A DNA stretch of 64,000 bases from an uncultured Candidatus Saccharibacteria bacterium (GTDB lineage Bacteria; Patescibacteriota; Saccharimonadia; Saccharimonadales; JACDBH01): positions 120,928 to 184,927 of the forward strand of contig CAZBAF010000001.1 of the NCBI GenBank assembly GCA_964490245.1. Direction: 5' to 3'. The notes under the pieces were generated by a model, which worked only from the letters and a program-made list of their open reading frames with translations, was not told where the DNA came from and ran no database searches. Position 1 is the stretch's first letter, and the number at the start of each line of letters is the position of its first letter. A program made the translations under genes and the position numbers. Positions 25,776-33,376 of the stretch are shown piece by piece.

Positions 25776-26303
25776 ATGGCCAAGAAGAATATCGAAAAAA
25801 TCAAGCAAGACTCTGAAGAGCTGAATGCTATGGCGGATTATTACGCTAAGGAATTCTCGGAGGTTTATTTTGTGCGCGATCTTTTAGCGGATTGCATTAT
25901 TGCCGTTGAAACAGCACCAGCGAAGCCACAATACCCTACAGTCGAACGCTCTACCGGCAATCGCAATATCTTCGGCTATCAGAATCTATTCCTTTCGACA
26001 CGTGTCAGGATCGATAAAAACCAGTACGGCAAGCCCATGATCGGTTACCAAAGCGCGAGTGGCAACGATACCCGTCAAGGCAAGATTGAGAAAGGCATTG
26101 TCAGAGGCAATAAAACTCCAGTTTCGCCAATGCCGGGCAGCACTAACCGTTCGTTGAGTCCGTTTGAACGCGCTCAGCTTGACGCACAGGTCAGATTGCG
26201 ACAGGCAAGCTCTAAAGAGAAGCCTGATTACGAAATGTACACAGACAAAGAGGGGCGTATGGTCGAACGCTTTGAGACATTTGAAGTAGTGAGGATGCGA
26301 TAA
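25776..26303 (+). CDS. hypothetical protein coupled to tail-fibre gene
   Basis: TAATG overlap with next gene. Confidence 0.5.
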   Translation: MAKKNIEKIKQDSEELNAMADYYAKEFSEVYFVRDLLADCIIAVETAPAKPQYPTVERSTGNRNIFGYQNLFLSTRVRIDKNQYGKPMIGYQSASGNDTRQGKIEKGIVRGNKTPVSPMPGSTNRSLSPFERAQLDAQVRLRQASSKEKPDYEMYTDKEGRMVERFETFEVVRMR

Positions 26304-26878
26304 TGGCAGATACGTTTATTGATGATCTAGATTGGCTACCAGATGAGCTTATTACGTCCACCAAGCTCAACCAATGGTGGGCTAACATGCAGAATTTTCA
26401 TAACGGTACGGCGTTAGGCGATGGAATTATCGTTACACGGCATCATGCCGACGCAAGTATTCCTATTAGCAAAATAGATCTTGCGAATTTTAAGAACATA
26501 AGTCGTGCATATGGCTATAGAACCTCAAATCAGACGACAACCTCAAATAGCCCGGGGGTTGTCCTAGCAACCAATTCGCCAAACGCAAACCTTGCAGTCA
26601 CGCACACAACAAAAACTGGTCGTGTGAAGATAAGGCTGTCTTTGCCGATATACAATAACGCAAACAACAGTCAGGTGCGTATATATGATGGCACGAATTT
26701 CCACGAGGTCATTAACTTTGCAAGTACTAATAATTCCTATAAAAGTGGTGAGGTTATAGTCGAGGGACTGACGCCTGATACTTCTTACACGTTCACCGCC
26801 TACATGAACTCGCAGGGCGGTTCAACAACTACATTTGCAGCATTTTCAACGGCAACACTTATCGTTGAGGATTACTAA
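26303..26878 (+). CDS. tail fibre / receptor-binding protein: 46-aa constant N-terminus + active C-terminal cassette A
   Basis: Crossover repeat lies in frame at codons 41-46 (GDGIIVTRH); C-terminus Ser/Thr/Asn-rich. Confidence 0.6.
   Translation: MADTFIDDLDWLPDELITSTKLNQWWANMQNFHNGTALGDGIIVTRHHADASIPISKIDLANFKNISRAYGYRTSNQTTTSNSPGVVLATNSPNANLAVTHTTKTGRVKIRLSLPIYNNANNSQVRIYDGTNFHEVINFASTNNSYKSGEVIVEGLTPDTSYTFTAYMNSQGGSTTTFAAFSTATLIVEDY
26424..26444 (-). repeat. shufflon crossover repeat a (GAATTATCGTTACACGGCATC)
   Basis: 1 of 6 copies; encodes IIVTRH in the expressed tail-fibre gene. Confidence 0.75.
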
Positions 26879-26880
26879 TC

Positions 26881-27308
26881 CTACGCTCTAATAGGAATAA
26901 TTAGAATCTTGCCGACTGATGAGTTCGCATTACCGCCAGAAGTACGTAGGAGTAAGCTGAACTGCTTCGTACCAGCTGTCACAGGTATAACGTCAATGAG
27001 TGCGTTTGTACCAGAATTGAATGTGTTTACAGAAGTGAATATGATTGTTTGACTATATGCAGTGCCGCCATCGTAGCGGAGTCGAGCGTATATATCTTTT
27101 TGTGAAGAATCTTGCCCTTGAAGCCTAACTGATCCCAAAACAAGAACGGCAGTACACCCTGTCGGAATATCGACATTTACGCTACCGACAGCTGTTTCTG
27201 TAGTACTGAAGTTCGAGCCAGACCATCCAGTTAATACGCCAATAGATGAAAGATCAAGTTTTTCCGGTATGATCGCACCAAGACCTACATGCCGTGTAAC
27301 GATTATTC
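26881..27308 (-). other. silent tail-fibre C-terminal cassette B (startless, begins at repeat b)
   Basis: Minus-strand frame open from repeat: …RIIVTRHVGLGAIIPEKLDL…KILIIPIRA*; ORF track shows its tail as 26881..27138. Confidence 0.6.
27288..27308 (+). repeat. shufflon crossover repeat b (inverted relative to a; 2 mismatches)
   Basis: CATGCCGTGTAACGATTATTC. Confidence 0.7.
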
Positions 27309-27320
27309 TGGCGAACGTGG

Positions 27321-27373
27321 TATAATAAGTTCAATAAACGCGGAAGCAGAAATGCAACCGCGTTTTTTTATTG
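27321..27373 (+). promoter_or_regulatory. TATAAT + hairpin + U-run unit, copy 6 (upstream of lysis genes)
   Basis: TGGTATAAT extended -10; AAACGCGG-(14-nt loop)-CCGCGTTT; TTTTTTTATTG. Confidence 0.5.
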
Positions 27374-27411
27374 GCAAATTCAGCAATATAGGGATGGGCA
27401 TGCAGGACAAC

Positions 27412-31067: not shown

Positions 31068-31591
31068 TGAATCAAGGTAGGCGCAACTTGGGATTTCCTA
31101 GCAACCAAACAAAGGGTGATGATTGGGGTTATTTTGCTGGATGTGGTGGTGCTGGTGGTGGCGGGTGTGTTGATCCTGCAAATTTCAGCTACATCTACTG
31201 GGGCATAAAAGTCAATCCTTTCTCGATGCACAACAGCAAGCTTGTGCTACTTAATGAGTCATTTAAGCCTTACACCGATTCATCAGCTGGATTTTGTGAT
31301 CACAACGCCGATCAGCCGCGTGGGTTCGATGTATTACTACTGTATAAGGCTCCAATTAGTGGGCTAGACCGCAGCAAAGCTACCAGCATAGTGACAATAC
31401 CTGCTAACATAACGCTGCCTTATGAGATTGAATTTGATTCGCAAGACATACCACAGCCAGATCATCCAGATTATGAGCGTCGAATCTGGGTTGCTCTAGA
31501 TATGTACACTAGCGGTCTTATGATCGAGGGTATCGCACAAAATACAGAGGTTATGAAAACCCTAAAGCTAAATTGGGAGGGTCGGCCATGA
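31067..31591 (+). CDS. hypothetical protein with Gly-rich loop
   Basis: Coupled ORF. Confidence 0.45.
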   Translation: MNQGRRNLGFPSNQTKGDDWGYFAGCGGAGGGGCVDPANFSYIYWGIKVNPFSMHNSKLVLLNESFKPYTDSSAGFCDHNADQPRGFDVLLLYKAPISGLDRSKATSIVTIPANITLPYEIEFDSQDIPQPDHPDYERRIWVALDMYTSGLMIEGIAQNTEVMKTLKLNWEGRP

Positions 31592-32082
31592 CTTTATCGA
31601 CGCGTAACCAAGAATATAAATACCAGTACAAGATTGTGTCTGTTGGTGGTGAGATTACTTTTTGCGGCAATGGGCCGACACTTATGGTGTCAGTACCAGA
31701 AAACCTACTCGACATAAAAGCAATGTTCATGCATGCCGTGCTGCAGTTTGACAATACAGTTCCAAGCGGTAACCGTAAAATACACTGGGCTGGCGGCGAC
31801 TATCCTATGACTCTCAACGGCATACCAAAACCAACCGAAGGTAACATGAAATACGTCAATCTGTCTGCAGATCCAGCCACTCGCATCGCAGATTTAAAAC
31901 TCGACATAACCGAACTTAAAGAAGGGTTTATGAAACAACTTGAAGATGACGCACCATTCGCATTCGACCAACAGAAAATAAATCTCAATCTAATCACCGA
32001 TATTGACGGTGGATTTGACGTAACAGGAAAGGTCATCTTATGGAAGGTAGATTTCGTATACACTACAAGCGGAATACAGTGA
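31573..32082 (+). CDS. hypothetical protein
   Basis: Coupled ORF. Confidence 0.45.
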   Translation: MGGSAMTLSTRNQEYKYQYKIVSVGGEITFCGNGPTLMVSVPENLLDIKAMFMHAVLQFDNTVPSGNRKIHWAGGDYPMTLNGIPKPTEGNMKYVNLSADPATRIADLKLDITELKEGFMKQLEDDAPFAFDQQKINLNLITDIDGGFDVTGKVILWKVDFVYTTSGIQ

Positions 32083-32369
32083 TACCGCCATCGCCGGGCC
32101 GCAAGCGAATCAAAAAAACGAAGCGATTCAACGGGTATCAACATCTTGGCAAAAAGATGACGTATAGCCCAAAGACTTGCGCTACGTCACGATGTATTTG
32201 GTGCGAGGCTCCTTTTGGTGGGCAGTTCCGTATCATATGCCCTGTGTGTCGTAATTGCCAATACTGTGGGCTTGCATCGACTGCAAGCCTTGCGAGCTGT
32301 CCAAACTGCGGCAATAAGCCTGATGACGATCTACGCGTCCAAAAGACCGTGCTGAGGCCAAGTCGTTAG
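32040..32369 (+). CDS. zinc-ribbon protein (multiple CxxC)
   Basis: CIWCEAPF…CPVCRNCQYC…CPNCGNK; its stop codon is followed directly by repeat e. Confidence 0.45.
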   Translation: MEGRFRIHYKRNTVIPPSPGRKRIKKTKRFNGYQHLGKKMTYSPKTCATSRCIWCEAPFGGQFRIICPVCRNCQYCGLASTASLASCPNCGNKPDDDLRVQKTVLRPSR

Positions 32370-32389
32370 AATTATCGTTACACGGCATC
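32369..32389 (-). repeat. shufflon crossover repeat e
   Basis: GAATTATCGTTACACGGCATC. Confidence 0.75.
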
Positions 32390-32778
32390 TTGCCGATGGC
32401 GCTAATCTCAAAATACCTACCGCCAATATGGTGGCGATCGGCGATTATTCCACATCTGAAGTCGACACTGGCTACAAGTGGATTGATGGTAAACCCATTT
32501 ATAAAAAGACCGTTAGCTTCGGGTCGCTTCCGAATAGCACAAGTAAAAGTGTCGCTCACGGCATATCGGGTATTAGCAATGTAATCGAATTTAAGGGCTG
32601 GACTCACAACCCATCGTTAGGATTCTGGTATTCCTTTAATTCCGCCTCGAACTCTGCGGCATCTGGTAATGCTCTTTTTGGGGCAAGGGTCGAGGCGTCT
32701 GACATCACTATAGCTACGAACTTTGATGGAAGTGGGTATACTACTTGCTACGTAACTGTTTGGTACACAAAGACCTAG
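32371..32778 (+). other. silent tail-fibre C-terminal cassette E (startless)
   Basis: IIVTRHLADGANLKIPTANMVAIGDYSTSEVDTGYKWIDGKPIY…CYVTVWYTKT*; ORF track 32428..32778. Confidence 0.6.
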
Positions 32779-32891
32779 CTAATTCAGGCAAACCCGAACT
32801 CTACGGTGGGGCAAAGCACCTTGCAAACCCACCGCACAATCCGCGTTTCCTTATTCTAATTATATCAAAAAACCATAAGCACAACAGATAT

Positions 32892-33376
32892 CTAACCGTT
32901 AACCCTACTTATAAGATGTCCGGAAAAGTACGAATTAGCAAATGTAGCATCAGTGTCTACTGTAGCGCCTACTGAGTAAGCTTCAACTCTAACCGTATCG
33001 CCCTCTTCTAGTTTTAAGTCCATTGACATCACTAATTGGTACAGGGCGCTACTAGATAGATCATTGCCGCGATAATTTGGAGTGTCTCCCGGCGATCCAT
33101 TAATAAGCAGGCCGATAAACACACGGTTAGATACATTATTAAATCTTATAGTTGCATCAAAGTGATATACCCCGTCAACTGGCGCAGTAAAGACATTTGA
33201 TGCATAGTTATCACCTAAGTCGTAGATCTCTGTCTGATAGTTGACCACAGTATGAGCTCCTGACGATAATGATTGAGAGTTTGTTTGGGTGGCTAAAAAT
33301 GCGATACCATTGCGCCATATGGAGTCGTTAATCTCAAGATTTCCGGCACCACCAAGATGCCGTGTAACGATAATTC
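32892..33376 (-). other. silent tail-fibre C-terminal cassette F (startless; C1q/TNF-like receptor-binding-domain flavour)
   Basis: Minus frame from repeat f: IIVTRHLGGAGNLEINDSIW…GVYHFDATIRF…HLISRVNG*; ORF track 32892..33248. Confidence 0.6.
33356..33376 (+). repeat. shufflon crossover repeat f
   Basis: GATGCCGTGTAACGATAATTC (+CAATTG extension). Confidence 0.75.

Follow-up and report, generated by a model that had tools for sequence, protein, structure and literature searches.

What does a prophage gain from a small tail gene followed by five further copies of a short sequence from its own coding region, each opening a reading frame that has no start codon? The question is raised by a stretch of 64,000 nucleotides (hereafter, the window; contig CAZBAF010000001.1 of assembly GCA_964490245.1) in which a siphovirus-like prophage carries a tail-tip gene at 26303..26878 (+ strand) and, downstream, an array of gene ends that extends to 33376. 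The host, as indicated by the sequence, is a Candidatus Saccharibacteria (TM7) bacterium. We conclude that the locus is probably a programmed multiple-inversion shufflon that changes the receptor-binding tip of a small protein at the distal end of the tail. A preliminary description of the sequence had proposed such a shufflon, with one constant head and alternative C termini, and this proposal is strongly supported by the comparison with related loci.

The repeat on which this reading is based, the 21-mer GAATTATCGTTACACGGCATC, has exactly six matches at three or fewer mismatches in the whole window (copies a to f), as had been described; the number expected by chance is 0.01, and none of 100 shuffles reached six. 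Copy a (26424..26444, + strand) lies in frame within the expressed gene, and the other copies are located at 27288..27308 (b, −), 29623..29643 (c, +), 30379..30399 (d, −), 32369..32389 (e, +), and 33356..33376 (f, −). Copy b (GAATAATCGTTACACGGCATG) carries two mismatches, and the A at its position 5 is the commoner variant in relatives. The orientation strictly alternates from a to f. The alternation had been recognized before, with the strand signs the wrong way round (i.e., the motif as written is on the + strand at a, c, and e). Sequence identity among the copies ends sharply at the repeat edges.

Each of the six copies opens a frame that starts with IIVTRH and is read away from the repeat for 107 to 160 codons. 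In the expressed gene, which encodes 191 amino acids (aa), codons 1 to 41 (26303-26425) form a constant head, IIVTRH follows as residues 42 to 47 (previously given as 41 to 46), and cassette a continues to 26878 on the + strand (150 codons from the repeat). The silent cassettes are b (26881..27306, −, 141 codons), c (29625..30059, +, 144 codons), d (30074..30397, −, 107 codons), e (32371..32778, +, 135 codons), and f (32892..33374, −, 160 codons). Together with a, they make up three convergent pairs, with stop-to-stop gaps of 2 nucleotides (nt; a/b), 14 nt (c/d), and 113 nt (e/f). The frames at copies b to f have no start codon, and stop codons are found 1 to 9 codons upstream; thus, none of these five cassettes can be translated in its present position. 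This anatomy, which is read directly from the sequence, agrees with the preliminary description, which had reported start-less IIVTRH frames (of 110 to 160 codons) and three truncated open reading frames (ORFs; 26881..27138, 30074..30364, and 32892..33248) that are all present in the ORF list.

The cassettes resemble the tips of known adhesins. An AlphaFold2 (AF2) model of the head joined to cassette a, of medium confidence (mean predicted local distance difference test [pLDDT] score, 70.6), ends in a C-terminal TNF/C1q-like jelly roll with structural matches to the Bdellovibrio Bd2734 C-terminal domain, the central spike knob of phage phi812, the lectin PLTL, BclA, and PRD1 P5. Cassettes a, b, and c are weakly related (25 to 28% identity; b versus a, 28%). 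Cassette d carries a gp53-like C-terminal/H-type-lectin-like domain (PF21882 [gp53-like_C], 29.5 bits, above the cut-off; H_lectin, weak; PHROG tail fiber protein, 8e-08). Cassette e is homologous to the C termini of Sipho_Gp37-type tail proteins (37 to 48% identity to the last ~110 residues of proteins of 526 to 859 aa) and also to the alternative C terminus of a simpler tail-gene switch in another Saccharibacteria prophage (L146; L120 to L151 are our labels for the related loci and contigs compared with the window). The C1q-like character that had been noted for cassette f is borne out by a Pfam C1q match (37.7 bits, above the cut-off), along with a PHROG minor tail match. A search with the concatenated cassettes, swamped by low-complexity words, returned homologues of cassette e alone. 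These tip-domain homologies and the position of the gene support a role for the predicted head-cassette product as a distal tail adhesin (i.e., a receptor-binding tip), with the constant 41-aa N terminus presumably anchoring it to the tail tip.

The repeat appears to be conserved as DNA and not merely as a peptide. Among 39 distinct copies, taken from the window itself and from at least 12 related loci, the consensus GAAT(A/T)ATC(G/C)TTACACGGCAT is essentially invariant, and the synonymous third positions of ATC-GTT-ACA-CGG-CAT are all frozen. The flanks are unrelated among these copies, except that a C recurs at position −5 and a T, explained by coding, two bases past the other edge (downstream). 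The crossover site is therefore conserved one-sidedly, with a fixed 20-mer, a variable outer flank, and an inner flank that is constrained by coding alone. Two phages with no shufflon (L150 and L151) carry homologues of the head-plus-a protein at the end of the tail module, with the equivalent peptide AIIARH written in different codons; there, the AIIARH-coding stretch is single copy, with no inverted partner and no recombinase nearby. The use of other codons in these homologues, set against the frozen 20-mer, indicates at the sequence level that the peptide motif is ancestral to the protein family and that the 20-mer is under a DNA-level constraint specific to the cassette-bearing phages. The preliminary description had envisaged that the same 21-mer might recur in unrelated phages lacking the alternating orientation; what we found in the non-shufflon homologues was a different coding of the peptide. 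Scans of the viral contig collection with the exact 21-mer and a degenerate 19-mer gave no match, as did a megablast search of the locus against the phage collection; a scan of genome contigs with the 15-mer repeat core gave single chance matches only, and a search for related loci in viral contigs with the recombinase described below gave nothing.

The head family provides evidence that cassettes are exchanged at this site. When 1.84 billion cluster representatives were searched exhaustively with a 48-aa head sequence, 29 proteins of 67 to 228 aa with the head at their N terminus were recovered. The peptide GDGIIVTRH, at residues ~39 to 47, is nearly invariant among them, even where head identity is 55 to 65%, while the 22 tails that could be extracted constitute 19 groups unrelated by BLAST. 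Nine public contigs encode a protein identical to the 175-aa neighbor of the head in the window. Two of the nine match the window at 100% identity, tail a included. The remaining seven are 98.3 to 99.4% identical to it upstream, up to positions 26427 to 26452, and then enter different tails (IIVTRHLGDSVATTPK..., IIVTRHLADNNISFAK..., or an f-like start) or break off within or next to the repeat.

Inversions among the relatives are likewise bounded by the repeat. Alternating repeats are present in L129 (five copies), L131, L141, and L149 (four copies each). The window holds two blocks of genes between repeats, block L between b and c (27309..29622, + strand; lysis operon) and block M between d and e (30400..32368, + strand; four ORFs). 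Relative to the head gene, block L is inverted in L129, L130, and L149, and block M is also inverted in L149; the inverted blocks sit exactly between two repeats, and the outer flanks are collinear in all three loci. Block M is collinear with the window in L129 and L136, and block L has the window orientation in L136. At the level of sequence, these comparisons demonstrate both cassette swapping at the site and site-bounded block inversion among relatives. Additionally, 7 of the 35 visible contig ends lie inside a repeat or no more than 9 nt from one; this holds for the first base of L134, a phage contig of 35.4 kb, and for the last bases of L141. The k-mer of the Logan assembler is 31. Since the repeats (20 to 28 bp) are shorter than assembler k-mers, breaks at them need several junction partners within one sample. 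We infer that these ends reflect mixed junctions within samples, with a mixture of strains as the alternative.

On the basis of these features, we propose the following mechanism. A single expression site runs from a promoter-like site through the 175-aa gene to the head gene with its constant 41-aa N terminus, and five further promoterless, ATG-less cassettes are stored in convergent pairs; each of the six cassettes begins with a 20- to 21-bp site that also encodes IIVTRH. For any two sites of inverse orientation, conservative site-specific recombination would flip the intervening DNA. Recombination of a with b, d, or f would place cassette b, d, or f behind the head, and cassettes c and e could reach it after one prior flip of their own pair. 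The benefit of such cassette exchange would be host-range switching.

Which enzyme might catalyze the inversions? Some 0.9 kb from repeat f, the gene at 34284..35240 (+ strand; likely start, 34320; 306 aa) encodes an arm-less, Xer-like tyrosine recombinase (Phage_integrase, 2.1e-29). The protein (306 to 318 aa) consists of SAM-like core-binding and catalytic domains only, with no arm-binding domain. The catalytic motifs (R151, H239, R242, H265, and Y274) are present, 44 residues follow the catalytic tyrosine, and the protein scores below every NCBIfam cut-off, the best NCBIfam models being Xer. No second site-specific recombinase was found in the window by Pfam scans of the larger ORFs or by six-frame tblastn searches with Hin, Gin, and the window recombinase, in agreement with the preliminary description, which had singled out this gene as the only one. 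Because it is the only site-specific recombinase of the element, it would be the most likely catalyst, possibly with the help of a 107-aa winged-helix-like DNA-binding protein (33533..33856, + strand; PHROG replication-initiator O-like N terminus, 2.8e-10), a candidate accessory factor; the enzyme would then have two jobs. In relatives, the 107-aa gene is invariably found after the last repeat and before the recombinase (syntenic in L134, L136, and L149), and a recombinase orthologue and the 107-aa gene follow the last repeat in all three loci with a visible downstream end (the window, L136, and L149). The four-site shufflon of L149 is followed by two tandem Xer-like tyrosine recombinases (10001-10849 and 10943-11851, 94 bp apart). 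The orthologue (60% identity) is intact beside the shufflon, and the second recombinase abuts a conserved promoter and att module that ends in a different tRNA-like 3' end. The retention of the orthologue hints, as far as gene order can tell, at a role other than integration. We put the chance that the adjacent recombinase is the invertase at close to even, or a little below.

Several observations weigh against this assignment. By its position in the sequence, the recombinase is the prophage integrase. It lies ~250 bp from the phage/host junction, which falls inside a tRNA-Thr gene. The attR site (35473..35550, + strand) joins phage sequence to the 3' half of the tRNA-Thr(GGT) gene of the host. 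L136, which is 98% identical, matches the window to 35514 and then runs into a complete phage-borne tRNA-Thr gene (the attP form), whereas the window enters the host 3' half; the "tRNA-Thr" of the window is therefore a phage/host hybrid (Rfam, 22.3 bits versus a gathering score of 29). Homologues with 56 to 67% identity occupy the same prophage/host junction in other Saccharibacteria, one of them in a prophage whose tail module is of another type and whose inversion repeat is unrelated, and the gene order of the 35-kb phage contig is 107-aa gene, recombinase, tRNA-Thr, and early genes. The family thus behaves as a tRNA-Thr integrase. The crossover repeat shows no significant resemblance to the att core, ranking 867 of 70,776 with a position weight matrix (PWM) of eight att-type motifs, and a match to the att region as good as that of the real repeat was reached by shuffled repeats in 25 to 44% of trials, both in this phage and in L146. 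The likeness of TTACACGGCAT to the attP arm TTACAAGGGAT (9 of 11) was discarded as evidence on the PWM rank and the shuffle trials. In L146, a Saccharibacteria prophage with an SPP1-Dit-type tail, a single invertible segment lies in a 305-aa tail gene, bordered by a 24-bp inverted repeat (GGTACGGTCCTACCAC...; 5814-5837 and 6539-6562) that is in frame at GTVLP. This repeat is unrelated to the window 20-mer, yet the L146 recombinase is 56% identical to that of the window, which weighs against a single specificity for att and inversion sites.

These points would suit a programmed shufflon driven by another enzyme, either a host Xer-type recombinase or the product of a gene at the left end of the prophage, of which ~1 to 2 kb lies outside the window and could hold one. 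The near invariance of the 20-mer, while the recombinases diverge to 60% identity, would fit a conserved host enzyme, and trans-acting invertases exist in Bacteroides according to a citation in PMC6109161. However, no other site-specific recombinase was found in the 64 kb searched, of which 28 kb is host DNA, and in the 35-kb phage contig the region that matches the missing left end (~1.8 kb) contains no recombinase, only a tRNA-Thr gene and an ORF of 177 aa. The constant company of the last repeat, the 107-aa gene, and the recombinase orthologue also argues against this alternative, as does the orthologue kept by L149 although another recombinase adjoins its att site. We regard an invertase encoded by the host or beyond the window as possible but doubtful. 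The full proposal, in which one arm-less Xer-like recombinase both integrates at the anticodon region of tRNA-Thr and inverts at an unrelated one-sided 20-bp site, thereby shuffling six cassettes as well as operons (the lysis genes and the four-gene block) that have evolved promoters of their own and so tolerate flipping, with the 20-mer as a shared docking site that gives Saccharibacteria phages access to one pool of at least 19 tip domains, is offered tentatively, at somewhat better than one chance in three.

The programmed shufflon also has to be weighed against observations on inversion itself. No inversion isoform of this exact prophage was found in the protein collection or the public contigs. 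The five predicted chimeras of the head with cassettes b to f are absent from a collection of 15 billion proteins, both contigs with 100% identity to the window pass through repeat a without a break, and the relatives with flipped blocks are 70 to 80% identical, so that their inversions could be old. All of these weigh against the shufflon as we describe it. A rival explanation is that there is no programmed inversion and that the repeats are short anchors for occasional homologous or RecT-assisted tip swaps between co-infecting phages, with the cassettes as a passive library. The lack of isoforms within a clone would suit it, the phage encodes RecT, and mosaic boundaries do fall at the repeat: in L136, identity drops from 98% to 75% exactly at repeat d, beyond which there is a different e/f pair, and the L120 to L128 contigs have a common head and differ past the repeat. 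However, a passive library leaves unexplained the strict alternation, the convergent pairing, the start-less cassettes with stops directly upstream, the blocks L and M flipped in place between intact repeats, and the contig breaks at a repeat below the assembler k-mer length; moreover, the sharp-edged invariance of 20 bp of DNA fits a protein-binding site better than a patch of homology. We therefore consider this explanation unlikely, and we find it about as improbable, if not slightly more so, that no dedicated inversion enzyme exists. Returning to the programmed shufflon, we think that inversion is likely to be ongoing in this lysogen.

It is hardly credible that a tail gene was duplicated and its paralogues are now decaying, with the 21-mer as a conserved domain boundary: II(V/A)(T/A)RH does occur in the homologous tail proteins of non-shufflon phages, and L136 does hold one truncated cassette remnant, but the five silent frames are intact and begin exactly at the repeat, the cassettes span at least four domain types, and the synonymous sites of the repeat are frozen where the non-shufflon homologues use other codons.

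The closest known system, likened here by architecture and description, is the Rin shufflon of Bifidobacterium breve and Bifidobacterium longum prophages (Bb423phi1 and others), in which sequencing reads show inversions (Mavrich et al. 2018, PMC6109161), and which is also present in Eggerthella lenta clade 1 prophages (PMC8778435). In both systems, a prophage tail receptor-binding gene has a constant N terminus and promoterless variable C-terminal cassettes, an in-frame crossover repeat splits the constant from the variable part in the expressed gene, one short asymmetric repeat precedes each cassette, some cassettes are inverted, and an arm-less XerD-like tyrosine recombinase flanks the array. 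The cassettes are mutually dissimilar in both and include H-type-lectin-like tips. A large survey has also reported gene-altering tail-fiber inversions adjoining tyrosine recombinases (PMC9881135). The preliminary description had called a tail-fiber shufflon with a tyrosine recombinase unusual; the combination is already on record as the Rin shufflon (PMC6109161 and PMC8778435). The differences from Rin concern the host (Saccharibacteria versus Actinobacteria), the constant part (41 aa versus 168 aa), the site (20 to 21 bp versus 8 to 11 bp), and the layout, which here consists of three convergent pairs spread over 7 kb and enclosing the lysis operon and a four-gene block, while Rin is a compact tandem array. 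In addition, Rin phages have a distinct lambda-like Int as a separate integrase, whereas the recombinase flanking the array studied here is itself located at attR/attP.

The shufflons of R64/IncI1 and IncI2 plasmids (Rci, sfx, and pilV) also combine multiple inversion by a tyrosine recombinase (here, a candidate) at alternating sites with one constant N terminus and alternative adhesin C termini. The one-sided site, with a conserved core and one conserved arm, is a further likeness; in R64 sfx, a 7-bp core and a 12-bp right arm are conserved, the left arm is variable, and this asymmetry is believed to confine Rci to inversion, so that deletion between direct repeats is avoided (PMC11852207). 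In R64, cassette exchange acts on PilV, an adhesin of conjugative type IV pili, and not on a phage tail protein, and the segments, in contrast to those described here, do not carry whole operons; the window recombinase, with its 44 residues after the tyrosine, has no Rci-type extra C-terminal domain. The Gin/G system of Mu, Cin/C of P1, Min of p15B, and Pin of e14 likewise exchange tail-fiber C termini by inversion to change host range. The Min system of p15B is a multiple-inversion system with six crossover sites, as here. These systems differ in that their crossover sites are unrelated to ours, and the cassettes described here have no accompanying genes for tail-fiber assembly chaperones. 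A serine invertase was rejected as a candidate; six-frame tblastn searches of the window with Hin and Gin gave nothing below an E value of 0.1, and the Pfam scans showed no Resolvase domain. A diversity-generating retroelement (DGR) also diversifies a phage receptor-binding tip within one lineage, although it does so by mutagenic retrohoming, while the cassettes here are fixed and stored; neither a reverse transcriptase nor a template repeat was found here, and a DGR was rejected on the lack of a reverse transcriptase.

As a general principle, tail-fiber phase variation through a shufflon that has a predicted tyrosine invertase beside it was described as early as 2018. What is new here is the Saccharibacteria host, the 41-aa constant head, the whole operons in invertible segments, and the absence of a separate invertase gene. 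Our literature search found no paper describing such a shufflon in Saccharibacteria phages. To our knowledge, the phages of Saccharibacteria and of other candidate phyla radiation (CPR) bacteria are almost unstudied, and we know of no account of how they find their hosts. The interest of the locus therefore lies in the host group, the passenger operons, and the question of the inversion enzyme. It amounts to a catalogue of receptor-binding tips on a 41-aa adaptor, with six per genome and at least 19 unrelated types in the family, and its sharply defined 20-bp site could be used for host-recognition tests in TM7 co-cultures. It also suggests that essential operons can travel as passengers within a shufflon, and it raises the possibility of an integrase that doubles as an invertase or of an enzyme acting in trans. 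An inversion-only tyrosine recombinase with a 20-bp asymmetric site, if confirmed, would be of interest to groups working on shufflon-based DNA barcoding.

The passenger blocks contain their own expression signals. Block L comprises a small ORF with a C-terminal hydrophobic segment (~27400-27681), an endolysin with GH25 and three LysM domains (27695..28855), and two ORFs with no assigned function (104 aa, 28864-29178; 94 aa, 29307-29591). The four ORFs of block M (30468-31067, 31067-31591, 31573-32082, and 32040-32369; 199, 174, 169, and 109 aa, respectively) have no Pfam or PHROG family match; the last one is Cys rich and zinc-ribbon-like. All four are conserved in relatives, always embedded within the shufflon. 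A module consisting of promoter-like (T/C)GGTATAAT, a hairpin, and a T-run occurs three times in the window. The first copy (25689..25756, + strand), 5' of the 175-aa and head genes, has TTGAGA-17-TATAAT (11/12 promoter match) and a terminator-like stem at 25727-25756. The second (27318-27373; TGGTATAAT and a hairpin) lies just outside repeat b and faces block L, and the third (30413-30460; GGTATAAT and a hairpin) lies just outside repeat d and faces block M. In L129, L136, and L149, the −10-like element keeps a fixed distance from the bordering repeat and moves with the block when it is inverted. Blocks L and M would be flipped as passengers, and their own promoter-like modules beside the bordering repeats could allow expression in either orientation. 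With their −10-like TATAAT, GC-rich hairpin, and T-run, the modules resemble late promoters with a terminator behind them, perhaps as an anti-termination design. An Rfam scan of 24 to 37 kb gave nothing above threshold, and the modules match no known RNA family. The truncated cassette remnant of L136 lies at 1250-1459, beside a d-type repeat; it starts with IIVTRHLGSESDLQIP, then degenerates and overlaps a + strand ORF. The lysis block directly abuts it, which suggests a past deletion within that shufflon.

The prophage occupies positions 1 to ~35,500 of the window with a G+C content of 45 to 49%, and the host DNA beyond it has a G+C content of 50 to 56%. NCBI records of the recombinase homologues bear the name Candidatus Saccharibacteria, and the host genes flanking the prophage (L33, GH15, GH57, and secE/nusG) recur beside homologous prophages. 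The prophage genes include those for RecT (annealing protein; 244..1089, profile scan), a DNA methylase, a terminase, a Mu-like portal, a gpT capsid protein, a tail tube protein, and a tape measure protein. Downstream of the tape measure region are the genes for a 533-aa tail protein, a CHAP-domain protein (on the opposite strand), the 175-aa protein, and the 191-aa head-plus-a protein. The 175-aa gene (25776..26303, + strand) accompanies the head gene, on its upstream side, in all relatives, and its stop overlaps the head-gene start (ATGA); its product has no match in Pfam, PHROG, or NCBIfam.

Some further observations concern the integration site and the rest of the prophage. Integration interrupts the tRNA-Thr(GGT) gene of the host close to the anticodon arm. 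In the attP forms (L136, 6355-6524; L134, 2100-2175), a complete tRNA-Thr(GGT) gene lies ~40 nt past the crossover point, and the phage thus seems, from these sequences, to supply a substitute for the gene that it splits. On the phage side of the att site, the region 35416-35520 contains two to three tandem degenerate copies of GAGC(A/G)CTTnCAnnGnAA, which are similar to the D-stem/anticodon arm of tRNA-Thr; similar tandem copies are present in L134 (1990-2060) and L135 (1515-1575). These motifs could be extra integrase binding sites. Upstream of them is a strong promoter-like sequence, TTGACA-17-TAATAT, at 35314-35342. The DNA methylase (N6_N4_Mtase; 7187-8512), immediately 5' of the terminase region, has a fused ParB-like N-terminal domain. 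The CHAP-domain protein (24971-25804, − strand) has a long low-complexity N-terminal region, and the position of its gene, in the middle of the tail module on the opposite strand, is conserved across all relatives.

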